Source of the DNA: an uncultured Actinomycetes bacterium
GTDB lineage: Bacteria; Actinomycetota; Acidimicrobiia; Spongiisociales; DATADW01
NCBI GenBank assembly: GCA_963733905.1
Contig: CAVTEU010000012.1
Location: 32,603-96,602 of the forward strand
Length of the DNA: 64,000 nt
Direction: 5' to 3'
The first letter of the stretch is position 1. Each line of letters starts with the position of its first letter. The notes under the pieces are model-generated. The model did no database searches. It was not told where the DNA came from and worked only from the letters and a program-made list of their open reading frames with translations. Of this stretch, positions 3,371 through 14,934 are shown piece by piece. Both the position numbers and the translations under genes were made by a program.

Positions 3371-4360
3371 TCAGTCGACCACGACCGTGAGGACGGTGGT
3401 CTGCACGGTCACCCCGTTCCAGCGCCATCGCCCGACAAACTTGTAGGTGCCCGGCCGGATCGAGCGGAACTGGTAGACGAACACCTTCTTCGCCCTGCCG
3501 CCCGCCGTCCTCAACGTGGGTCCATCCGGGTCCAGCGTCTCGCCATCGACGGTCAGGGCGAAGCGGGTGGCGTCTGACATGAAGATCGAGCGCTCCCCGG
3601 ACAGGTAGGGGAGCTTGTGGACGATGCCTTCGCGGACCACGTATGTCCGCCCGGCGGGGAAGTGCTCGGTCCCGGTGCACCGGGTCCGATCTGCATTGCA
3701 GCCTCCGCGGAAGCGGCCGCTCAGGCTGATCGTGGGGTAGATCAAATCGAGGTCGAGCGCTCTGGCGAGGAAGCTCGCCATCTGGGCGCGGGTTACCGGG
3801 TCCTCGGGGCAGTAGAGCGTCTCGGTGCAACCCTGGGTGATCCCGTCGGCGGCGATGGCCGCGATGGCACGGGCATGCGTGCTCCCCGGGCTCACGTCAT
3901 TGAACACCCGGCCGGGACGGCCGGCCAGTCCCTCGGCCCGGGCCAGGAAGCTGGCCATCTGGGCGCGTGTCACCGGTTCGTCCGGGCAGAAGAGCCTGGG
4001 AGTACATCCCTCGGTGATCCCTTCTTCCTCGATGGCGGCGATGGCGCCGGCGTGCGTGCTCCCCGGGGTCACGTCGTCGAACACCCGTCCTCCCCGTGTC
4101 CCCAATCGGTAGGCGCGGGCCAGGAAACTCGCCATCTGCGCCCTGGTCACCGAGAGGGTCGGGCAGTAGAGGTCCTCGGCGCAGCCCTCGGTGATCCCGG
4201 CGGCGGCGATGGCGTTGATCGCCGCCTCGTGGTAGTCGCCGTTGTCGTCCTTGAATGCCCCGCCTGTGTTGGGGAGGTCGCTCTGACCGGCTGCGGGCGG
4301 CACGGCCAGCGCCGCCACCATCGCGGCCACCACCATCGCCGCCACGAACGCCACTCTCAT
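3371..4360 (-). CDS. Secreted protein with three S-layer-homology (SLH)-type repeats and a C-terminal beta-rich domain
   Basis: Intact 329-aa ORF with signal peptide MRVAFVAAMVVAAMVAALAVPPAAG. Three ~60-aa repeats each end in GIT.GC....CP...VTRAQMASFLARA. ATG 4360 overlaps the upstream stop (ATGA 4357-4360). Confidence 0.75.
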   Translation of the reverse strand: MRVAFVAAMVVAAMVAALAVPPAAGQSDLPNTGGAFKDDNGDYHEAAINAIAAAGITEGCAEDLYCPTLSVTRAQMASFLARAYRLGTRGGRVFDDVTPGSTHAGAIAAIEEEGITEGCTPRLFCPDEPVTRAQMASFLARAEGLAGRPGRVFNDVSPGSTHARAIAAIAADGITQGCTETLYCPEDPVTRAQMASFLARALDLDLIYPTISLSGRFRGGCNADRTRCTGTEHFPAGRTYVVREGIVHKLPYLSGERSIFMSDATRFALTVDGETLDPDGPTLRTAGGRAKKVFVYQFRSIRPGTYKFVGRWRWNGVTVQTTVLTVVVD

Positions 4361-4809
4361 GGTTCCACCTCGAGGGTGGCCAGGAGCTGGTTGACCTCCT
4401 CGACCAGCGCCCTCCGGGATGCGTGGCTGCCAAGCACGACATAGAGGCAGAAGGCGCGTCCTCCTTCCGAGAAGAAGCGTTGGACACCGCTCTGCCCGGG
4501 GATGAGCCGCTGCAGCGTCGAGGTCGAGAAGTCATCCGGGTCCAGATGGTCGGGGCGGTCTGCGGCGAAGAGCGTCTGGGTCGCCGACGCCGGTTCGAAT
4601 TCGAAGAGAGAGACGAAGATGTCGTCGGAGCGCATCATCTCCACGGCTCCGCCGCCGTAGTCGCCCCGCTCGACGGGGAGTGGGAAGGTTGCGGCGTGGA
4701 GGACGGCGCGGTTGGTGCCTTCGGCTTGGGGCACGGCGCTGGTCCGGTAGACCTCCCCCTCCCACCCCGTGGGGAGGTCGATTCGGATCCGCTCGGAGTC
4801 GATCTGCAT
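4357..4809 (-). CDS. Hypothetical protein (150 aa), no signal peptide seen
   Basis: Internal ATG (4809) of ORF 4357..5259 starts MQIDSERIRIDLPTGWEGEV.., 5 nt after the stop of the upstream gene (4815). Composition is coding-like and the stop overlaps the SLH gene start. I recognise no family. Confidence 0.5.
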   Translation of the reverse strand: MQIDSERIRIDLPTGWEGEVYRTSAVPQAEGTNRAVLHAATFPLPVERGDYGGGAVEMMRSDDIFVSLFEFEPASATQTLFAADRPDHLDPDDFSTSTLQRLIPGQSGVQRFFSEGGRAFCLYVVLGSHASRRALVEEVNQLLATLEVEP

Positions 4810-4814
4810 CGCAG

Positions 4815-5396
4815 TCACCAAATCACGATCAGTGCCGTGGCGGCGAGGGCGACGATGGTGGCGATGCGGGCATATGGGGCGACCGCGGTCAGGCGGCGGT
4901 GGAGCAGCCGCAGCCCGCCGGGGTCGCTCACCCGAGACGAAGCGAGAAGGGTCGATGCCCTTGCTGCCCCGAATATCGCCCCCACCACGATTCCGGTCCG
5001 CACCGACCCGGTGAGAGCAGCCAAGACAAAGGTGGCGTAGACCGCGGCGGTCGTGACGATCGTCACCACACCGAGCCCGAGTTGGAATCCGAAGCCGGCG
5101 CCGTACACCCAGCCGCGGTAGCGGTGCAGCCAGTCGTCGTCGACCTGCCGTCTCACCCCGGGAAGACGTCTCCCCGATGCATCGAGCAGCGCGGCCGAGA
5201 GACAGACGACGACGGCCAGCCACGCCACCACCACAGGAGTGGGCGAGGCGATCGCCCAAAGCGCTGCCCCGATGGCGCCGGCGATGCCCCCGGCGACAGC
5301 GCCCCCCGCCACCGACCCGGCGATGTAGGCGGTGGTGGTGACCCAGAATCGGTTGTGTCTTGCCCGCTCACCGAGCGGGTGGATGCTGGCCAGCAT
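4815..5396 (-). CDS. Integral membrane protein (193 aa, about 5-6 TM helices), unknown family
   Basis: Intact ORF with Gly/Ala-rich hydrophobic helices (AYIAGSVAGGAVAGGIAGAIGAALWAI; VVVAWLAVVVCLSAALL; GFGFQLGLGVVTIVTTAAVYATFVLAAL). It sits between the thioredoxin-like gene and the 150-aa gene in the same operon. Confidence 0.6.
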   Translation of the reverse strand: MLASIHPLGERARHNRFWVTTTAYIAGSVAGGAVAGGIAGAIGAALWAIASPTPVVVAWLAVVVCLSAALLDASGRRLPGVRRQVDDDWLHRYRGWVYGAGFGFQLGLGVVTIVTTAAVYATFVLAALTGSVRTGIVVGAIFGAARASTLLASSRVSDPGGLRLLHRRLTAVAPYARIATIVALAATALIVIW

Positions 5397-5485
5397 CGAT
5401 TCCCCTCAGGGTGACCACGCCGAGCGGAGCCCTGCCATCAGGGCCACCAGCGACGCTCCCGCAAAAAGCATCTCGCTCATGTCGT

Positions 5486-6208
5486 TCATGTGGCATCCGC
5501 CGGCGTGTCGTCGCTCCCGGTCGGATAGAGGCTGGAGTGACCAGGTCCGATCCCGCCGGCGAGCAGGTCTCGGGTCTCCCGGTCGGCAACCGGCCCACTC
5601 GCCATCGAGCCATCGGCCCGTGCCCGTTCGAGGAGCGAGACCATCTGCCGCCAGGTGGCGGCGGCGCCCTCACCGGCGACCCGCCCCGAAGGCCCGTCAA
5701 CCAGGATGAAGTAGGGCGCCACGGGTACACGGTAGTGGTCCCAGGCTTCGCTCGACATGGCGATCGTGACACCCGTCGGGGCGAGCGCCGCCACCGTCGA
5801 CTCGCTCTCCGCCTCGGGACCTTTGGTGACGACCACCAGTCGCACCCCGGCGGGCACTCGCCTGTCTTCGCCAAATGCCTTCCAGAACCCGGCGCAGGTG
5901 ACGCAGCCGCTGGTGAGGAAAGCGAGCAGCGTCTGGCGCTCGACACCGACGACGGCCACCTTCACCGCCCCGCCCCCGGGGCGATTGCCAGAGACGTCGA
6001 CTGCGGTGGTGCCCTCGGCACGGGGCGCCGGCACCCCCGGTCTGGTCCGGAGAGGCACCGCTGCCTCACCGACGTCCTCGCTATCGCCCAGTCGGTGCAG
6101 GCTGCGCAGGATGTCTGCGTGGCTCCGCAACAGGCCGAACACCAGGACGCCGAGCACCGCGATCACCACCGCCTCGAGCACAACGAGGGTGAGCAGAGCG
6201 GTGTCCAT
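5486..6208 (-). CDS. Membrane-anchored thioredoxin-fold protein, MauD/TlpA-like (CxxC = CVTC)
   Basis: ATG 6208 overlaps the stop of the upstream gene (ATGA). N-terminal TM helix MDTALLTLVVLEAVVIAVLGVLVFGLL, then a thioredoxin-like core with LLAFLTSGCVTCAGFW and PYFILVD. Confidence 0.7.
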   Translation of the reverse strand: MDTALLTLVVLEAVVIAVLGVLVFGLLRSHADILRSLHRLGDSEDVGEAAVPLRTRPGVPAPRAEGTTAVDVSGNRPGGGAVKVAVVGVERQTLLAFLTSGCVTCAGFWKAFGEDRRVPAGVRLVVVTKGPEAESESTVAALAPTGVTIAMSSEAWDHYRVPVAPYFILVDGPSGRVAGEGAAATWRQMVSLLERARADGSMASGPVADRETRDLLAGGIGPGHSSLYPTGSDDTPADAT

Positions 6209-7545
6209 CACGAAACCCCCCAGACCAAAGGCGTTCCGTCTGATGGCCCGAAGTCGAAGGTGATCTGAGAACCCCCACCGGTGGGGGTCTGGCGCAACCG
6301 CCATGATCCCGAGTTGAAGACCCCGATCCCATCGGTCCCATCCCCGTTCCAGTCACCGACCACCGGGATCCCGGCGGAAGTGCCGAAGGTGAAGATGCGG
6401 TCGGCGGTCCCGCTGGACAGCGAGTCTCGTAGCAGCCACTCACCGTCGCGATAGAGCCCGGGAGAGTCGCCCCCGGTGTCATCCCAGTCGCCCACCACGG
6501 GTATGCCGTCGCCCCCGCCGAACTCGAATTCGATGTCGGGTGGTCCGGACTCGAGGCTTGTCCGCAGCATCCAAGATCCGCCCCGCACCACACCGGGGAG
6601 ATCTCGTCCATCTCCAAGCCAGTCGCCCACCACCGGGATGTCCCCGATGCGGCCGTATTCGAAGGCGATGTCCGGCTCGCCGTCACCCGGTTCGCTGCGG
6701 AGCAGCCAGACAAGGGCTGTGTCGGAGAGGCGGCCAAATCGGGTGCCCCTGACGATTCCCGCGGTTGCGGTCCCCGACGCCGTCCAGTCGCCCATCACGG
6801 GATGGTCGCCGATGATCCCGTATTCGAACTTCCGGTTGGCACCGCCATCGGTCAGCGAGTTGCGCAGCCGCCATGTGTTCCCGTTGACGACCGCGGGACG
6901 CGCCATCAACGGGGGAGGAGCATGCAGGCATGGTCGGTCGTGGAAGCGGGTGTTGTTGTCGGTGGCGACCGTCGTCGTGCACGAGTCGTCGATCTCCCAT
7001 GGTGGGGTGCAAGTCACCACCCGGCATACGATCGGGCCCACGCAGGCGACGTCCTGGTTGCACTGGCCATAGCGGAAGGCGGCACAGCACGCCTTGCGGT
7101 TGCCGCAGGATCCGGCGCCACAGCCGCAGTCGCACAACCCGACACAACCCGACCCGCACGATCCCGACGACCCGCACCCACAGCTGCCGCAGTTGTCGAC
7201 GTTGCAGTCGATGTAGTACCGGGGCAGATCGACGCCATCCTCGACGCAGAACCCGGAGACGTCCGCCTTCCACCACCCGGCGGCGAGCGTCCCGGGGGGG
7301 CACGAGTTGGAGCCGTAGAGAGTGCAGCAGAACTCGGTGTAGCCGTCGCAACACAGCGCCGAGCAGTCGCAGGAAGAACCGGAGCAGCTGCAGATGGCCG
7401 AATACGCCGTCACCGGCCTGAGGGCATATGCCATCGGGGCGGTTGCCAGGGCCGAACCAACTAGAGCGGCGTTCCGGAGGAAGCCGCGCCTGCTGGTCCT
7501 CGAGGCGAGGAACCGGCTGCCCGCATCAACCAGCCTGACGCTCAC
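6208..7545 (-). CDS. TAT-exported Cys-rich methylamine-dehydrogenase-light-chain (MauA)-like domain fused to FG-GAP/VCBS-like beta-propeller repeats (445 aa)
   Basis: GTG 7545 overlaps the MauE-like stop (GTGA). Twin-arginine signal SRRGFLRNAALVGSALATAPMAYA. There are 28 Cys between residues 52 and 206, including SCPPGTLAAGWWKADVSGFC and YIDCNVDNCG (compare MauA NCPPGT..ASWVASC..YRDCCG). Repeats of the form FEYG..GD.PVVGDW.GDG.D..GV follow. Uninterrupted within ORF 6208..8577. Confidence 0.7.
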   Translation of the reverse strand: MSVRLVDAGSRFLASRTSRRGFLRNAALVGSALATAPMAYALRPVTAYSAICSCSGSSCDCSALCCDGYTEFCCTLYGSNSCPPGTLAAGWWKADVSGFCVEDGVDLPRYYIDCNVDNCGSCGCGSSGSCGSGCVGLCDCGCGAGSCGNRKACCAAFRYGQCNQDVACVGPIVCRVVTCTPPWEIDDSCTTTVATDNNTRFHDRPCLHAPPPLMARPAVVNGNTWRLRNSLTDGGANRKFEYGIIGDHPVMGDWTASGTATAGIVRGTRFGRLSDTALVWLLRSEPGDGEPDIAFEYGRIGDIPVVGDWLGDGRDLPGVVRGGSWMLRTSLESGPPDIEFEFGGGDGIPVVGDWDDTGGDSPGLYRDGEWLLRDSLSSGTADRIFTFGTSAGIPVVGDWNGDGTDGIGVFNSGSWRLRQTPTGGGSQITFDFGPSDGTPLVWGVS

Positions 7546-8097
7546 CGACCAGCCCGGGCCGCGTTGAGGCGGGGGAGTTCTGTCATCGCCATCACCACTC
7601 CCGCCACCCCCATCAGGAGGAAGGCGAGGAATGGGATTCCGGCCCACGGCTGCGTGGCGACGATGTCGAGGATCCCGGATGGGGGTGAGGCGATGGCCGT
7701 CGTCAGGCACACCGCGGCGGCGACGAGATCTATGACCAGGTGCGTCATGCCGGGGGGCGCATCCTCCTGGCCGAAGCAGCCACACGAGGCCACCTGGATC
7801 CGGCCCGACATCGCTGCGGCGACGAAACCGGCAAAGACCACATAGAACCCACCGACGACCAGCGCCGCCGTCCGACCGCCGACCACAAGTGCCGCCGAGC
7901 CGGCAATCAGCTCGGCCGCTCCCATCAACCGCGCCGCTGACCGGCGCAGCTGGGACATGGAGCGCAGCCAGGGCGCCGGCGGCGGGACCCGGCCGGACCA
8001 ACTTCATCGCCCCACCCACGGCCAGCACCGCCGCGGCCAGGGCGAATGGACCGCTCAACACGCGGCGAGCATAGGCAGAGACCCCCCTGAAGGCCAT
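7542..8097 (-). CDS. MauE/DoxX-family redox-associated membrane protein; one frameshift near nt 7950
   Basis: N-terminus MAFRGVSAYARRVLSGPFALAAAVLAVGGAMKLVRPGPAAGALAAL lies in the frame of ORF 6208..8577. The rest is in ORF 7542..7958, with the SCGCFG motif and further TM helices. The start may instead be an internal GTG near 8061. Confidence 0.65.
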
Positions 8098-8106
8098 GTG
8101 ACCCAC

Positions 8107-8722
8107 ATGGCCCAGCGATCTTGCCGGGGTATCATCCAAACCCCCAGCTGGCAGGAGGATCCAATCTCCATCCCCGACGCGCTCGCGTTGGTCCGGGTGC
8201 TCCTGGTGCCGGTCATCATGTGGCTGATCAGCGCCAACGAGCGGATCGAGAACGGCTTCGGCATCGCCGCCGTCCTGTTCTTTGTGGCGGCGCTGACGGA
8301 CTTTCTCGATGGCTATTTCGCCAGGCGCTGGGGGATAACCACCGTGCTCGGTGCATTCCTCGACACCACGGCGGACAAGTTCCTCGTCAACGGGTTCCTT
8401 GCTCGCCCTGATCGCAGTCGGCCGGGCATCGATCTGGGTGACGCTCATCATCGTGCTCAGGGAGTTCGTGGTGATGGCGCTGCGAGGTCTCGCGGCCATG
8501 AGCGGGACGATGGTGAAGCCTTCCATCTGGGGAAAGCTCAAGGCGAGCATCCAGTTCCTCGCCATCCTCCTCGCCATCCTCCGGCTTCCCGAGCCGTTGG
8601 GCCGGCTCTACCTCGATGAGTGGGTCATGTGGCTGGCCGCGATCGTGACCATCGCCTCGGGGTGGCAGTACGTGGCCAGCTTCTGGTCGGTGGTGCGCGC
8701 GGTCGATACCCGGACGCCGTGA
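8107..8722 (+). CDS. pgsA: CDP-diacylglycerol--glycerol-3-phosphate 3-phosphatidyltransferase (CDP-alcohol phosphatidyltransferase); one frameshift near nt 8385
   Basis: Motif DFLDGYFARRWGITTVLGAFLDTTADK (D..DG..AR..G...D...D) in the ORF 7957..8619 frame. Continues GSLLALIAVGRASIWVTLIIVLREFVVMALRG in ORF 8351..8722. The junction is at a GGG run. Confidence 0.85.
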
Positions 8723-9736
8723 GCGACGCATCTCCGGGACCTGTCATGGTGACTGGCGCCACCGGTGTGGTGGGGGCGCCGATCCTGCGGCTTCTGGTCG
8801 AATCCGGTCGCCAGGTGGGAGCCCTCGTTCGCTCCGTCGGGTCGGCCGAGTCCGTCGAGAAAGCCGGAGCGGTGGCGGTGAACGGGGACCTGCTCAACCA
8901 TGGCTCGCTGGTCCGCGCCTTCTCCGGGTTCGAGGCGGTCTACCACGTCGGTGGGGTCAACCAGTTCTGTGTCTCGGACCCCGAAGCCATGGACGCGGCC
9001 AACATCGACGGCTCTCGCAATGTCGTCAGAGCATGCGCCGCCGCTGGCGTTCGGCGTCTGGTGTACACGTCGTCGGCCGCGGCGATCGGCGAGGAGAAGG
9101 GCACCGTCGGAGACGAGGGCTCGCCTCACCGCGGACGCTTCCTCTCCCAATACGAGAGGTCCAAGTACCTGGCCGAACAGGCAGTGTTCGCCGAGCGGAC
9201 CCCGGTCGAGGTGGTGGCGGTCAACCCGTCCTCCGTCCAGGGTCCCGGGAGGGCCAGCGGCACGGGGAAGCTCATCCTCCAGGTGATCGATGGCAAGCTC
9301 CCCGTCCTGGTGGACACGAGGGTGAGCATGGTCGACATCGACGATTGCGCCCGCGGGCATCTGCTGGCAGAGGAGAAGGGCACGCCGGGACAGCGCTACA
9401 TCCTCAGCGGTTTCACCCTCGACATCCGACAGGCGCTCGACCTCCTCGGGGAGGTCACCGGACGGCGCGCCAAGGTTCGCTTCCTCCCCGGATGGGTGGC
9501 GCTGGCCGGTGCCGGTGCCTATGGAGCGGTCTCGAGGATGATCGGCAGACACCCCAGGTTCTGTTGCGGAGATGGCGCGCACCATGCTCCACGGCCACGC
9601 CTACGACGGCACCAGGGCGACCCGAGACCTGGGTCTGGTCTACACCCCGGCGGAGGACACGCTGCGCCGCCTCTACACGTGGGCGCTCGGCCAGGGTCTC
9701 GTCGGGCCGCAACCGACGACGCCGGCACCGGCATGA
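8719..9736 (+). CDS. NAD-dependent epimerase/dehydratase (extended SDR); one frameshift near nt 9560
   Basis: GTG 8719 overlaps the pgsA stop (GTGA). Rossmann motif VTGATGVVG and catalytic YERSK. The C-terminus SVAEMARTMLHGHAYDGTRATRDLGLVYTPAEDTLRRLYTWAL is in the +1 frame and ends at TGA 9734-9736. Confidence 0.8.
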
Positions 9737-10164
9737 CCCGTTCGATCGGGCTCACCGCCGACGAGGTGAACGACTACTTCCATTCCGACTACCCATCCGC
9801 CGCCGAGTCCGGCATCCGCTGCGAGGAACTTGGTGATGGTTGGGCGGTGGCCCGCTGGACCTACAACCCGGCTCAACTCCGGCCGGGCGATTACATCAGC
9901 GGCCCGACGCAGTTCACCCTCGCCGACACAGCCATCTGGTTCGCCGTCTTCACCGAGATCGGCATCGCCCCAATGGCGGTGACCACCGATCTCTCCATCT
10001 CGTTCTTGCGACCGGCCACAGGGGCCGATCTCTTGGCCCGTGCCGACCTCGACCGGGTGGGGCGGACCCGGATGTCCGCCCGAGTGCTGCTGTGGGTGGA
10101 CGGCGCCCCCGACCGTCCCGTCTCCCATGCAATCGGCAGCTATGCCCGCCCCCAGGACCTGTGA
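9733..10164 (+). CDS. PaaI-family hotdog-fold thioesterase
   Basis: ATG 9733 overlaps the SDR stop (ATGA). MTRSIGLTADEVNDYF..GPTQFTLADTAIWFAVF..TTDLSISFLRPA..ARVLLWVDG is typical of the 4HBT/PaaI fold pattern. This is the tail of ORF 8620..10164. Confidence 0.65.
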   Translation: MTRSIGLTADEVNDYFHSDYPSAAESGIRCEELGDGWAVARWTYNPAQLRPGDYISGPTQFTLADTAIWFAVFTEIGIAPMAVTTDLSISFLRPATGADLLARADLDRVGRTRMSARVLLWVDGAPDRPVSHAIGSYARPQDL

Positions 10165-10298: not shown

Positions 10299-11309
10299 AT
10301 GGACACACTGACCCAGCCGCAAACCAACCCTTCTCGTCCCCCCTCCCGGCAACCGGTGCGCCGCCGCCGCCGGCGGGGCCGGGGGTGGGTGCTCTTCTTC
10401 CTGTTCCTGGCGGTGCTCGCCGTCTTCGCCGCTGCCGGGTACGTCTATCTCGACCAACTCGCCATGGATCGGGTTCCTGTGGACACGCTGTCGGCCGCAG
10501 GGGGACCCACCAACTACCTGATCGTCGGTTCCGACACCCGTGAGGATCTCCCCGATGATCTCGAGGGGAACTTCGGCGATTTCAGCGGCGCCCGCTCCGA
10601 CGTGATCATCCTCGCCCACGTCACCGATGGGCGGCGGCAGCTGCTCAGCCTGCCGCGCGACCTCAAGGTCGACATCCCCGGTGAAGGCACCAACCGGATA
10701 AACGCCGCCTATGCCTTCGGCGGTCCTGAGCTGCTCACCGAGACGGTGGTCGACGCCACCGGTGTTCCTGTCCACCACTATCTCGAGGTCGACTTCGGTG
10801 GGTTCGCATCGATCATCGATGCCGTCGGTGGGATCGAGCTCGACATCCCGTACCCGGCCCGCGATCTCAAGTCCGGTCTCGAGATAGATGCGGGCAAGCA
10901 GACCGTGGATGGCGCAACCGCCCTCGCTTACGCCCGGTCGCGACAGTACGAGGAACTCCGCGATGGAGAGTGGGTCTCTCAGGGTGGCGGCGACCCGGGG
11001 AGGACGTCGCGCCAGCGCGAGGTGATGCTCCAGGTGCTGGCCAAGGTGGGCAGCCCAGCGGTTCTCGTTCGCACCCCCGGGCTGGTCACCGCCGTGTCCT
11101 CCAACCTCACCGCCGACGAGGGCCTCTCGCTTTGGGATCTGCTCCGGACCGGTGTGGGGATGCGGTTTGCCGGCGAGACCGACACCGTCGCCCTGCCCGT
11201 GGTCAGCGCACCGGAAAACGGCGTCGCCTACGTGGCACGTGACGAGCCCGAGGCGAGCGACATGATCGACGCCTTCCTCGACGGCCGCCCCCTGGAGACC
11301 GAGGAGTAG
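10299..11309 (+). CDS. LytR-CpsA-Psr (LCP) family cell-wall glycopolymer transferase
   Basis: Intact 336-aa ORF. Arg-rich cytoplasmic tail plus TM ([27 protein letters not shown]). LCP core NYLIVGSDTRE..RSDVIILAHV..LLSLPRDL..INAAYAFGGPELL..HHYLEVDFGGF..ALAYARSR. Confidence 0.9.
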   Translation: MDTLTQPQTNPSRPPSRQPVRRRRRRGRGWVLFFLFLAVLAVFAAAGYVYLDQLAMDRVPVDTLSAAGGPTNYLIVGSDTREDLPDDLEGNFGDFSGARSDVIILAHVTDGRRQLLSLPRDLKVDIPGEGTNRINAAYAFGGPELLTETVVDATGVPVHHYLEVDFGGFASIIDAVGGIELDIPYPARDLKSGLEIDAGKQTVDGATALAYARSRQYEELRDGEWVSQGGGDPGRTSRQREVMLQVLAKVGSPAVLVRTPGLVTAVSSNLTADEGLSLWDLLRTGVGMRFAGETDTVALPVVSAPENGVAYVARDEPEASDMIDAFLDGRPLETEE

Positions 11310-11411
11310 GGCACTGCTTGCCTCCCCCCGGTCGGCACGGCGGAGGAGTGCCAGGGCGAGCGTCGCAACACGGTGCTGACTCCCCCTGAGGGGCGACGGA
11401 GCGACGGTGTC

Positions 11412-11526
11412 CTCACCGTTGGGAGTTCGCCAGCCCCCCTACCCGCTGCTCCGCAGCGGGTCCCTTCCCCCTGCGGGGGGATTCTTGGCCGCCGTCCGCC
11501 GTCTTCCGTCTTCCGTCTGCCGTCCA
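11412..11526. repeat. Structured intergenic repeat, family 1, copy A (hairpin core plus 5 tandem heptamers CCGTC[CT][GT])
   Basis: Core 11418-11480 is 60/63 identical to the reverse complement of 53917-53979. It contains stems CCCGCTGC/GCAGCGGG and CCCCC/GGGGG. The heptamer array CCGTCCG CCGTCTT CCGTCTT CCGTCTG CCGTCCA is at 11492-11526. GCGACGG AGCGACGG lies in inverse orientation at 11393-11408. Confidence 0.85.
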
Positions 11527-11555
11527 CGGAGCGGCTCCTACCATCTTGCGGGCCC

Positions 11556-14500
11556 GTGCCTGCTCCGCTCGCTTCGCTGGTCGACCGGTGGCGGCCCCAC
11601 GATCTCCCCGGGGCAACCGGGCGGTTGGTGGTGCCGCCCAATGCCCGCGCCATCCTTCTCGGAGGTCTGGCGGCCAAGGCCACGGGAGCGGTGTTGGCCG
11701 TCGTTCCCAGCGAGCGCGATGCCGAGGAGCTTGCCGAGGACCTCGAGCTTTTCGTCGAGAAGGTGGCGCTGCTCCCGGCCTGGGAGACGCTGCCTTTCGA
11801 ACACGTCTCTCCGAACGTCGGGACCATGGCGCGCCGAGCCCATGCCAGGCACCGGCTCCGCCAGAACGAGCCGGGGGCGGTGGTCGTGGCATCGGCCCGT
11901 TCGGTGTCACAGCGGGTCAGCCCATCGTCGGTCGAGCCGATCACCGCGGCGCCGGGCGAGGAAGTCGGTTTCTACCGGCTCATCAGCGACTTGGCCGCGG
12001 CGGGTTATCACCGGACCGACCGGGTCGAGGCGCGCGGCGAGGTGGCGGTGCGGGGTGGGATCATCGACGTGTTCCCCGCACAGGGCGAGGAACCGGTCCG
12101 GATCGAGTTGTGGGGAGACGAGGTGGACTCGATCCGAGTCTTCTCCATCTCCAGTCAGCGGTCGATCGAGCCTGCGCCCCGTTTGGTTGCCTACCCGGCC
12201 CGCGAGTTCCGCCCCGAGGGGGAGGTAGCGAGCGAGGCGCGCCGGTTGCTTTCCACCGAGCAGTGGGCCGCCGCCACCTGGGAGCGGCTGGCCGAAGGGC
12301 TCGTCTTTCCCGGGATGGAGTCGTGGCTCCCCTGGATGACACCGCCGGTCACCGTCCTCGATGAGCTACCCGCCGGTGCACGACTAGTCGTCTTTGACCC
12401 GGTGAGAGCGGGTGACCGCAGCCGCGACCTGGTCAAGGAGGAGGCGGAACTGGCTGCTGCACTCGCCCCGACGTGGGGCCATGGCGCTCCCGAAGCGGGC
12501 GAGCATCCCGCCCTATATCTCGATCTCGGCCAGGCCCTCGAGGGCCGCGACCTGCTGACCGCGCCCGCCGCTGGCGGCCGGGCCTGCCGACGAACGCCTC
12601 GAGGTGCGGGGACTCGACGCCACTCCTGGCGACCCCGAGTCGGTGGCCCGTGGGCTCGACCGGTTGATGCGAGCCGGGACCACGGTGGTGGTGGCGATGG
12701 ACGGGGAAGCAGCCGCCGACCGTGTTGCCGGCGTCCTGGCCGACGAAGGCGTCGCCTTACCGCGCCGATCCTCGCTCGACGAGGTGGCGTCGGCGGTGCT
12801 CCCGGTCGGGATTCACCGCGGTTTCATCCTCCCCGGTCTCGGCGTCTCCGTTCTCGGCGAGCAGGAGATAGCCGGGAGGCGCCGCGCTCACCGCCGCGCT
12901 GCCCGCCGCGCACCGGCAACCGGGGCGGACTATCGCGACCTCACCCCGGGCGACTACGTGGTTCATCACCGGCACGGGATTGGCCGGTTCGAGGGGATGG
13001 TGACCCGGAGCATCGCCGGCGTGGAGCGTGACTACCTGGTGGTGGCGTATGCCGCCGGTGACCGGCTCTATGTCCCCACCGACCAACTGGCCGCGGTCCG
13101 CAAGTACACCGGCGGCGAAGAGCCTCGCATTTCCCGCATGGGGGGCAAGGACTGGGCCGAGACGCGGGCCCGGGTACGGAGGGCGGTGGCCGCGGTTGCG
13201 GAGCAGGTCGTGGCGCTCCACCGCGCCAGGGCGGCCGCCGTCGGGCACGCCTATCCGGTTGACGCACCGTGGCAACGCGAGATGGAATCCGCCTTCCCGT
13301 ACGAGGAGACGCCCGACCAGCTAACCGCCATTGTCGACGTCAAGGAGGACATGGAGCAGGACCGGCCCATGGACCGTCTGGTGTTTGGAGACGTCGGCTA
13401 CGGCAAGACCGAGGTGGCGATCCGTGCCGCCTTCAAGGCGATCCTCGATGGCAGGCAAGTAGCGGTACTGGTGCCCACCACCCTCTTGGCCCAGCAGCAC
13501 CACCAGACCTTCTCGGAGCGTTTCGCCCCTTATCCGGTCAGGGTGGAGGTGCTCTCGCGGTTTCTCACCCAGCGTCAGCAGCGCGTCGTCGTCGACGGCA
13601 TACGGCAAGGAGATGTCGACGTGGTGATCGGCACACACCGCTTGCTCAGCGACGACATCCATTGGAAGGACCTCGGCCTGCTCGTGGTCGACGAGGAGCA
13701 GCGCTTCGGGGTCAACGCCAAGGACGCCATCAAACAACTCCGGGTCGGAGTGGACGTCCTCACCCTTACCGCCACCCCCATCCCACGGACGCTGGAGATG
13801 GCGCTGACCGGGATACGCGACGTGAGCCACATCCGGACCCCGCCCGAGGACAGGCACCCCATCCTCACCTACGTCGGGCCGTACGACGAGCAGGCCGTGG
13901 CGGCGGCGATCCGGCGTGAGGTGCTGCGCGAGGGCCAGGTCTTCTACGTGCACAACAGGGTCCGGTCGATCGAACGTGCCGTGGCTCGGCTCCGTGAGCT
14001 GGTCCCCGACGCCCGCTACGCGGTGGCGCACGGCCAGATGTCAGAGGGCCAATTGGAGCAGGTCATGCTCGACTTCTGGAACCGTGAGGCCGACGTGCTG
14101 GTGGCCACAACCATCATCGAGTCCGGGCTCGATCTGCCCCAGGTGAACACGCTGATGGTGGAGCGCGCCGACCTGTTGGGCCTTGCCCAGCTATATCAGT
14201 TGCGGGGACGGGTCGGCCGGTCCAGCCAGAGGGCCTACGCCTACCTCTTCCACCCGCCTGATCAATCGATCACCGAGGAAGCGCACCGCCGGCTCGAGGC
14301 GATCGGTGAGGCCACCGACCTCGGATCGGGGTTCCAGTTGGCTCTGCGCGACCTGGAGATCCGCGGGGCCGGCTCTGTCCTCGGCGAGATCCAATCGGGG
14401 CAGATCGCCGCGGTCGGCTTCGACCTGTACGCCGAGATGGTGGCAGATGCGATACGCCAGATGGAGGGGAGGGAGGAGGCGCCACCAGAGCCGTCAGAGG

Positions 14501-14934
14501 TTCGGATCGAGCTCCCCGTGGTTGCCCACCTGCCGCCCGAGTACGTGGGTGACGACGAGGCGCGGCTCGAGGCCTACCGCCGTCTGGCCGAGGCCGACAC
14601 GGTGGCCGCGGTGGACGACGTCGCCGTCGAGTGGCAGGACAGATATGGGCCGCCCCCCGAGGCGGCGCTCCAGTTGCTCGACGTGGCGAAGCTCAGGGTC
14701 GAGGCGCTCCGCGTGGGGATCAGCGAGGTGGTCCAGTTGCGCCACGAGATCAGACTCGCCCCGGTAGACCTCACCACGTCGCAGGAGGTCCGGCTGCAAC
14801 GGCTGTCGCCCAGGGCGGTACTCCGGTCCACCGACAGTGCCATGTTCATACCGGCTCCGGTTCCGCTTGTCACCGGGTTGATCGCCTTTCTCGCCGCCAT
14901 GTGGCCCCCATCCCAACCCGCCGCGGGGGAGTGA
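11556..14934 (+). CDS. mfd: Transcription-repair coupling factor Mfd; one frameshift near nt 12580
   Basis: ORF 11373..13031 (N-terminal UvrB-like region: LLPAWETLPFEHVSPN) and ORF 12604..14934 in the +1 frame (CarD-like DYVVHHRHGIGRF; helicase motifs GDVGYGKTEV, DEEQRFG, TATPIPRT, QLRGRVGR). Start assigned to in-frame GTG 11556, downstream of repeat A (uncertain). Confidence 0.9.

Follow-up and report, generated by a model that had tools for sequence, protein, structure and literature searches.

A cysteine-rich protein family of Acidimicrobiia with a predicted MauA-type leader and MauE-, MauD- and MauF-like accessory genes

The gene described here lies in a stretch of 64,000 nucleotides from an uncultured bacterium of the class Acidimicrobiia (contig CAVTEU010000012.1), which was analysed as a whole and is referred to as the window in the following. 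It encodes a protein of three parts, a predicted leader for the twin-arginine translocation (TAT) system, a domain of extreme cysteine density and a C-terminal region of repeats, and it belongs to a compact minus-strand operon that also encodes homologs of MauE, MauD and MauF. On the sequence evidence assembled below, the cysteine-rich domain defines a large, widely conserved and so far unannotated protein family. Its predicted leader and its accessory genes tie it to MauA, the light chain of the tryptophan tryptophylquinone (TTQ) enzyme methylamine dehydrogenase, and we discuss how far this relationship may extend to the mature domain and to its cofactor.

The locus and its cysteine-rich gene

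The operon runs from the MauE-like gene through the cysteine-rich gene and the MauD-like gene to the open reading frame (ORF) 4815-5396, followed by a small gene, here termed p150, and a gene for a protein with S-layer homology (SLH) repeats (Table 1). At four of these five junctions, the stop codon of one gene overlaps with the start codon of the next or is separated from it by 6 nt. The start codon of the cysteine-rich gene, a GTG at position 7545, shares bases with the TGA that ends the upstream MauE-like ORF (GTGA), and the stop codon of the gene (6208-6210) is overlapped by the start of the MauD-like gene (GTG at 6211 or ATG at 6208). Likewise, the ATG of the SLH protein overlaps the stop codon of p150.

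The sequence-only reading of this DNA had counted 28 cysteines in residues 52-206 of the encoded protein (window positions 6928-7392), and the translation matches this count exactly. The cysteine density of this segment is thus 18%, and there is no cysteine in residues 1-51 or in residues 207-445. Cysteine makes up 0.68% of the residues encoded by seven neighboring genes, and with this background the binomial probability of finding at least 28 cysteines in 155 residues is about 4e-31. The gene is real, because a 99%-identical protein of 445 residues (P0001) is encoded on an independent contig and more than 2,200 homologs cover it over its full length at 50-60% identity. The AlphaFold2 model of the full-length protein has a mean predicted local distance difference test (pLDDT) score of 89.9, with values of about 86-96 for the cysteine-rich domain. 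A longer form of the gene, the 789-residue ORF 6208-8577, was considered and rejected; its frame is merely open upstream in DNA of 68% G+C content.

Table 1. Features of the cysteine-rich gene and its operon, in coordinates of the window
Feature	Position	Strand	Description
Cysteine-rich gene	6208-7545	minus	445 aa and stop codon; TAT leader, cysteine-rich domain, predicted beta-propeller
Predicted MauA-type twin-arginine leader	7423-7545	minus	Residues 1-41: LVDAGSRFLAS segment, RTSRRGFL, hydrophobic region, AYA
Cysteine-rich domain	6928-7392	minus	Residues 52-206; 28 cysteines
N-S-C-P-P-G-T-L-A-A-G-W-W motif	7270-7308	minus	Residues 80-92; invariant N80, C82, P83, G90, W91, W92
Gly/Ser/Cys-rich loop	7105-7191	minus	Residues 119-147, CGSCGCGSSGSCGSGCVGLCDCGCGAGSC
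F-R-Y-G-Q-C motif	7060-7077	minus	Residues 157-162; found in 251-257 of 257 sequences
Predicted C-terminal beta-propeller	6211-6906	minus	Residues 214-445; five repeats ...W.LR...F.FG..GD.PVVGDW.GDG.D..GV.R; no cysteine
MauE-like membrane disulfide oxidase	7542-8097	minus	SCGCFGQ active-site motif; Pfam MauE E 1.9e-8
MauD-like membrane-anchored thioredoxin	5486-6211	minus	CVTC (CxxC) motif; TIGR02661 E 1.7e-5, far under cut-off
MauF-like polytopic membrane protein	4815-5396	minus	Pfam DsbD_2 E 3.2e-6, 27.6 bits; no conserved cysteine
p150	4357-4809	minus	About 150 aa; no signal peptide
SLH protein	3371-4360	minus	Three SLH repeats, each with a cysteine pair; Pfam SLH E 4.5e-22

Conservation of the cysteine-rich domain and its fusion partners

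An exhaustive profile search with the cysteine-rich domain alone yielded 469 clusters at 50% identity. In addition, a scan with a pattern of the FRYGQC motif described below, covering one genome per species, located the domain in the genomes of at least 563 species (a lower bound), nearly all of them Acidimicrobiia (Acidimicrobiales, Microthrixaceae, Iamia and others). Four contigs that carry the domain, L068 (407 kb), L080 (1.36 Mb), L032 and L062, are labeled Acidobacteriota, Gammaproteobacteria or Gemmatimonadaceae; such labels on short contigs are probably binning errors. Named members of the family are all annotated as 'hypothetical' or 'twin-arginine translocation signal domain-containing', and the family was not found described in the literature.

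For the analysis of conservation we used a close family set of 112 homologs and a wider family set of 257 aligned domains. Searches of Pfam, NCBIfam and the PDB with the protein, with family profiles and with the 112 homologs returned nothing for the cysteine-rich domain. The possibility that the region belongs to an unrelated cysteine-rich family, raised by the sequence-only reading, accordingly found no candidate in these sequence searches, and metallothionein-like or low-complexity cysteine-rich Pfam families match neither the window protein nor any of the 112 homologs. The cysteine positions are conserved column by column, unlike those of low-complexity sequences.

In the close set, the invariant cysteines include C59, C65, C73, C82, C100, C140, C142, C147, C154, C162, C174, C179 and C189, and W91, W92, W183, F72, N80, P83, R109, Y111 and D113 are invariant as well, as are F157, R158, G160, Q161 and C162 of the FRYGQC motif. 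The wider set reduces the cysteines to a core of about 16 (positions 59, 65, 73, 74, 82, 100, 114, 140, 142, 147, 154, 162, 174, 179, 189 and 206), of which C174, followed by R175, and C179 are invariant. Its universal core of other residues comprises G90-W91-W92, R109-Y110, D113, the FRYGQC motif, G170, R175, P182, T199 and H202. Apart from the plain cysteine spacing, FRYGQC is the best-conserved stretch of the family. The conservation of cysteine and tryptophan positions among homologs, which the earlier reading had named as a check of its proposal, is therefore found for both: W91 and W92 are present in all 257 sequences, and W183 is a tryptophan in 233 of these and a tyrosine in 23.

The distribution of the cysteines is that of paired residues. 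In 107 of the 112 close homologs, the number of cysteines per domain is even (20, 22, 24, 26 or 28), and several cysteines are present or absent together, namely C138 with C153 (phi 0.97), C130 with C134 (phi 0.92) and C74 with C206 (phi 0.90), while C52, C54, C61 and C66 vary as one block. The even counts and the paired gain and loss point to disulfides rather than to metal ligands or compositional drift, and the cysteines of the domain would accordingly form roughly 10-14 disulfide bonds. They could instead bind metal in an iron-sulfur or a metallothionein-like thiolate cluster, which would be assembled in the cytoplasm and would account for the export of a folded protein through the TAT system. 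The substrates of this system typically are proteins with a cofactor, a cysteine density of 18% would suit a metal-binding protein, and the joint variation of C52, C54, C61 and C66 is that of a block of four. We nevertheless consider metal binding very improbable, given that the variable cysteines are gained and lost in pairs and their counts are almost always even, that the operon brings no cluster-assembly genes but a thioredoxin and a thiol oxidase that acts outside the cytoplasm, that no ferredoxin or metallothionein family matches the domain, and that its model is β-rich and confident without a ligand.

The run of glycine, serine and cysteine residues in the middle of the domain (Table 1) had initially been read as a low-complexity insert splitting a MauA-like fold. 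In the hhalign comparison, a gap of 13 residues in MauA stands opposite part of the run. The run is not low-complexity sequence, because its cysteine spacing is nearly invariant among the close homologs and the region is modeled by AlphaFold2 at a pLDDT of about 87-95. In the wider family, cysteines at positions 119-138 are found in only 53-89% of the sequences, and most of them vanish together with C168. The run is thus a structured, lineage-variable and disulfide-stapled loop.

The C-terminal half of the protein is modeled as a β-propeller of the FG-GAP type, at a pLDDT of 92-98. The Pfam family FG-GAP_3 (PF13517) is matched by 45 of the 112 homologs (best E 1.9e-5), while the window protein itself remains below the detection limit of this profile. 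With Foldseek, the propeller matches best (E 9e-7) the Streptomyces griseus protein UmbA4 in complex with teichuronic acid (9oee_A); fungal lectins of the type of Psathyrella velutina lectin (PVL) and integrin alpha come next. The propeller is one of several C-terminal modules in the family: 26 of 99 representatives carry LGFP repeats after the same N-terminal domain, and further relatives carry CWB2, SLH, DUF4214, ricin-type lectin or tectonin modules. Since these modules are exchangeable, the cysteine-rich domain would be the constant functional part of the proteins and the C-terminus their cell-wall or glycan anchor. About 3 kb away from the operon, the opposite strand carries a gene of the LytR-CpsA-Psr family (10299-11306, plus), whose members attach cell-wall polymers.

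Leader, accessory genes and the relation to MauA

The claim that the protein carries a twin-arginine signal is supported by a match to TIGR01409 (TAT_signal_seq) over residues 17-45, which at 17.0 bits lies above the curated cut-off of 16.7, and by the conservation of R19 and R20 in 95-96% of the family. Moreover, the leader appears to be specifically of the MauA type. In an hhalign comparison of 126 family representatives with 116 MauA precursors, the leaders alone align with a probability of 97.3% (E 2.7e-11, score 48.5), and the N-terminal 213 residues with a probability of 97.2% (E 3.5e-11, score 75). The latter alignment extends collinearly from the beginning of the leader up to and including the CPPGT..W region, and most of its score is supplied by the leader. 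Part of the match is the segment that precedes the twin arginines (SVRLVDAGSRFLASRTSRRGFL in the window protein versus FDNLVEKMSRRVAGRTSRRGAI in MauA), which, to our knowledge, is normally not conserved between TAT substrates. Column-shuffled controls score 9.7±2.0 versus 48.5 for the whole leader, and 5.5±1.5 versus 15.7 for that segment on its own. Furthermore, a hidden Markov model (HMM) of the family leaders recognizes MauA precursors with up to 29.4 bits (median 17.0), compared with 9.7 bits for its best unrelated match in 0.93 Mb of Acidimicrobiia DNA translated in six frames, and the reciprocal HMM of MauA leaders scores the family leaders at up to 20.8 bits versus about 10 bits for other TAT-like segments.

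The operon points in the same direction. MauE, a CXC-type disulfide generator linked to quinone, MauD and MauF are the three mau accessory proteins that are known to be needed for the small subunit, and the MauE-like and thioredoxin-like neighbors noticed in the sequence-only reading are indeed present (Pfam MauE and TIGR02661; Table 1). The CXC-F-G signature in the SCGCFGQ motif of the MauE-like protein is the active-site motif of MauE (bioRxiv 10.64898/2026.03.05.709764). Both cysteines of the CxxC motif are conserved in the MauD-like family, and the window protein shares 25% identity with canonical MauD over 104 residues across this motif in BLASTP. Our comparison with canonical proteins covers a single mau cluster, that of a Methylobacterium (L086), the gene order of which fits the canonical order, mauFBEDACJGLMN. 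Against the proteins of this cluster, the MauD-like family profile scores 31.2 bits with MauD (E 1.7e-9), the MauE-like profile 19.3 bits with MauE, and the MauF-like profile 47.4 bits (E 2e-14) with the product of the first gene, which stands at the mauF position; the best match of the MauF-like profile outside the operon family in the 0.93 Mb is 6.9 bits. Pairwise BLASTP matches between the operon proteins and the Methylobacterium mau cluster lend further support. With homologs of MauE, MauD and MauF all found, the full accessory trio of the small subunit thus accompanies the cysteine-rich protein.

We also considered ORF 4815-5396 as a conduit for reducing equivalents of the CcdA/DsbD type, which would serve disulfide isomerization. 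This was rejected: the MauF-like family has no conserved cysteine and 42 of its 63 members lack cysteine altogether, so that the protein cannot be a thiol electron conduit. For the cytoplasmic p150, no match was found in Pfam or the PDB, and a comparison with every ORF of the Methylobacterium mau cluster, including those at the mauJ and mauL positions, revealed no counterpart; one may guess that it is an export chaperone that binds the leader. The arrangement is well conserved, as among 47 loci with sufficient flanking sequence the MauD-like gene is present in 46, p150 in 46, the MauE gene in 42 and the MauF-like gene in 41. In one locus (L004), the accessory set is found in a different gene order beside a family member with a CWB2 module. 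In L001 and L005, too, the SLH gene comes next after the operon, and tblastn detects this gene in 10 of the 47 loci. Each SLH repeat of its product contains a cysteine pair in a GC.....CP motif, and two further cysteines lie in the C-terminal domain; this protein may be a second substrate of the oxidative-folding system of the operon.

From the leader and the operon, then, the link to MauA is genuine, mainly on evidence beyond that of the sequence-only reading. For the mature domain, that reading had lined up the NSCPPGT..GWW segment with NCPPGT..SW of MauA, and this is the sole local alignment that hhalign returns for the mature domains. The Paracoccus MauA sequence used for our comparison is identical to 1mg2_B. 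The score of the mature domains against the alignment of 116 MauA sequences, 22.5, exceeds those of all 150 column shuffles (13.4±2.6, maximum 21.1) and of a reversed control (16.7). For structural searches, we also modeled the cysteine-rich domain by itself, which keeps the propeller from dominating Foldseek (AlphaFold2, mean pLDDT 66), and the top two matches among 350,542 PDB chains are both TTQ light chains: 3sle_C, from pre-methylamine dehydrogenase, and 2agw_D, the small subunit of aromatic amine dehydrogenase.

Several observations weigh against a MauA-like mature domain and its maturation by the operon. PF02975, the family of the TTQ light chains, matches neither the window protein (E up to 1) nor any of the 112 homologs (E up to 10), and with family profiles built from 25 and 33 sequences, the PDB yields no match up to an E-value of 10. 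The mature-only hhalign comparison with the 116 MauA sequences reaches a probability of 6.2%, and the MauA mature-domain HMM scores family members at about 3 bits, with a maximum of 6. Alignments of cysteine-rich sequences are prone to spurious cysteine-cysteine matches, and the two Foldseek matches have E-values of 1.9 and 2.1 and TM-scores of 0.19-0.29, on a model with a pLDDT of 66. As for the leader, the specificity control comprised a small set of unrelated TAT leaders. Finally, the MauE-like gene is frameshifted as assembled, by 1 nt near position 7940 (7930-7960, minus strand).

With regard to this frameshift, the first transmembrane helix of the MauE-like protein (..GAMKLVRPGPAAGALAALHVPAA) lies in the frame of ORF 6208-8577, and the remainder, from 7958 onward, in another. 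L052, which is 95% identical in DNA sequence, and L007 have one base fewer at this site and a single MauE ORF. Most likely, the frameshift is an assembly indel, a pseudogene being the less likely explanation. In the 5200-6200 region of L052, a frameshift carries the MauE frame into that of the overlapping cysteine-rich gene, and we dropped two apparent MauE fusions (P0049 and P0129) as evidence of functional coupling, as they are probably indel artefacts of the same kind. The assembly of the window looks indel-prone. Two more genes are apparently frameshifted: a CDP-alcohol phosphatidyltransferase gene, with profile positions 2-72 in the plus-strand ORF 7957-8616 and positions 75-151 in ORF 8351-8719, and an Mfd/TRCF gene, split between 11373-13028 and 12604-14931 (plus); ORF 8620-10161, which joins an epimerase and a 4HBT thioesterase domain, may contain another frameshift.

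Judged by its sequence, the mature domain thus seems to resemble MauA above background, but weakly and not significantly. Because the hhalign probabilities are only 1.5% (for the single Paracoccus MauA, over the 17 columns of NCPPGT..W) and 6.2%, we claim no membership in the MauA family for it, and the MauA-like fold proposed in the sequence-only reading is not established. We find it probable nevertheless that the cysteine-rich domain is a very distant relative of the TTQ light chains. The alternative is a purely structural or binding module of the cystine-knot type that is unrelated to MauA, in which case the leader resemblance and the shared accessory genes would stem from a general MauE-based pathway of oxidative folding that any cysteine-rich TAT substrate might use, by convergence or as a module. 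Indeed, MauE has been reported as a generalist substitute for DsbB, found in about ten times as many species as MauA (bioRxiv 10.64898/2026.03.05.709764), mauE and mauD homologs adjoin unrelated cysteine-rich candidate precursors in Streptomyces (PMC7794033), and the similarity of the mature domains is statistically weak. This explanation does not account well for a leader similarity that reaches into the normally unconserved segment before the twin arginines, for its collinear continuation into CPPGT..W, where the combined score of 75 is approximately the sum of both parts, for the presence of a MauF homolog beyond MauE and MauD, or for the fact that both best structural matches in the PDB are TTQ light chains. 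We therefore regard it as unlikely.

Whether a relative of MauA would also share its cofactor is a separate matter. The quinone-bearing Trp57 of MauA is aligned by hhalign to W91 or W92, with a difference of one residue in register between alignments. W183, which had been put forward as the second tryptophan of a TTQ, does not hold this position: Trp108 of MauA aligns instead with position 167, in a region of low alignment confidence, and this position is occupied by alanine, proline, glutamate, glycine or arginine, mostly by alanine or proline, and W183 itself is replaced by tyrosine in 23 of the 257 sequences. C119 and C168 co-vary (phi 0.59), as would a pair equivalent to the C78-C109 disulfide of MauA, but this correlation is not specific and explains no more than loss of the loop as a block. 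No MauG, MauB or amicyanin domains (Me-amine-dh_H, CCP_MauG) are found among the neighbors in three annotated loci (L001, L004 and L005). Neither the 64-kb window nor 84 of 85 related loci contain an ORF with two CxxCH heme motifs, and the operon has no LodB- or QhpG-type flavoprotein. As MauG and MauB genes are missing nearby and the partner tryptophan is not conserved, a canonical TTQ is unlikely; the domain probably makes none.

A different kind of quinoprotein may be considered, in which W91 or W92 would be converted to a tryptophylquinone-type cofactor, cross-linked to a tryptophan or cysteine or not, and the domain, tethered to the cell wall, would oxidize substrates such as amines at the cell surface, with MauG unneeded or a modifying enzyme encoded elsewhere. 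It would fit the alignment of these two residues, invariant in all 257 sequences, with Trp57, and the strict conservation of polar and aromatic residues (R109, Y110, D113, FRYGQ, R175, T199 and H202), as in an active site, as well as the MauA-type leader and the MauE, MauD and MauF homologs. The lack of nearby candidate heme, MauG, MauB, amicyanin and flavoprotein genes just described, the variable residue opposite Trp108 and the tyrosine at position 183 in some members speak against it, and we hold it to be a doubtful explanation. In its fullest form, the family would be a so far unrecognized, cell-wall-displayed class of quinoproteins, or of proteins with a cofactor made from their own residues, that shares its ancestor with MauA but needs neither MauG nor a separate heavy chain to mature. 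This we think improbable; if true, the propeller of the subfamily found in the window might replace the heavy chain, MauE, MauD and MauF would be a general machine for light-chain maturation, and the Acidimicrobiia would gain an extracellular redox enzyme.

The explanation that we favor, with moderate confidence, is that of a TAT-exported domain with roughly 10-14 disulfides that is matured by MauE, MauD and MauF together with p150, tethered at the cell surface by the propeller and distantly related to the TTQ light chains. The sequence-only reading had found the combination of TAT export with many disulfides puzzling; the puzzle is real, and it is common to MauA. Since the operon supplies oxidation outside the cell, the precursor presumably crosses the membrane in its reduced form. 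It would then be oxidized by MauE through MauD, with MauF and p150 assisting export or folding, and the lectin-like propeller would fix the product on the cell wall or a glycan. For the domain itself, our guess would be that it serves in redox reactions or in binding at the cell surface.

Comparison with known systems

The family described here is large and unannotated and, in genomes of at least 563 species, the MauE, MauD and MauF homologs and a MauA-type leader would serve a different and far more cysteine-rich substrate than MauA, without local signs of methylamine dehydrogenase. Because they do so, it is suggested that the trio is a portable module for export and oxidative folding of TAT substrates with many disulfides. 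The compact operon may thus provide a simpler system for understanding the use of the TAT pathway, the roles of MauF and MauD, and the leader segment as a recognition element. Furthermore, the constant fusion to cell-wall-binding or lectin modules would be consistent with a conserved surface function in an abundant but poorly cultured class of Actinomycetota.

The closest known counterparts are the TTQ light chains, that is MauA and the small subunit of aromatic amine dehydrogenase (PF02975). They likewise have a long TAT leader with a conserved segment (..LV[DE]..SR.[LV]A.RTSRRG..), a small, cysteine-dense and β-rich mature domain, an N-x-C-P-P-G-T-x(3-5)-W segment, which bears the quinone tryptophan in MauA, and mauE, mauD and mauF in their operon. 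The light chains contain 12 cysteines, in a topology of six disulfides, however, while the proteins of the cysteine-rich family have 20-28 and additional cysteine-rich loops. The light chains dock on a separate seven-bladed heavy chain, whereas the cysteine-rich proteins are fused to lectin or cell-wall-binding modules; the former come from Proteobacteria, the latter from Acidimicrobiia, a class of the Gram-positive type. Finally, the light chains come with the partner Trp108, MauB, MauG and amicyanin; in the cysteine-rich family, the partner tryptophan is not conserved and no such genes are nearby.

Two elements of our interpretation have already been published: MauE as a generalist oxidase (bioRxiv 10.64898/2026.03.05.709764), and mauE and mauD beside genes for cysteine-rich precursors in Streptomyces (PMC7794033). 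In the first of these studies, MauE functionally replaces DsbB (bioRxiv 10.64898/2026.03.05.709764). This MauE-centered pathway of oxidative folding likewise features the CXC-F-G motif (SCGCFGQ in the window), a thioredoxin-like partner and an adjoining disulfide-rich exported substrate. In the operon described here, however, MauE is neither free-standing nor a generalist: it is translationally coupled to one particular substrate, and in 41-46 of the 47 loci it has MauD-like, MauF-like and p150 genes beside it.

The second study describes decRiPPter candidate clusters for peptides that are made on ribosomes and modified after translation (RiPPs) in Streptomyces, which combine mauE and mauD homologs with precursors of at least eight cysteines and occur in genomes in which the mau cluster has no further orthologs (PMC7794033). 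As in the window, mauE and mauD are found in actinobacteria outside the methylamine pathway and beside a cysteine-rich exported product. The decRiPPter precursors, compared here by description, are short candidate peptides, whereas the window encodes a TAT protein of 445 residues with a folded domain of about 155 residues, and its operon includes a MauF homolog.

The predicted propeller, in turn, resembles those of the FG-GAP and PVL types, such as UmbA4 of the Streptomyces umbrella toxin particles, the lectin of Psathyrella velutina and the head of integrin alpha, which likewise consist of FG-GAP_3-type repeats with D-x-N-x-D-G-x-D loops. These proteins have seven repeats, whereas the propeller of the window protein has five.

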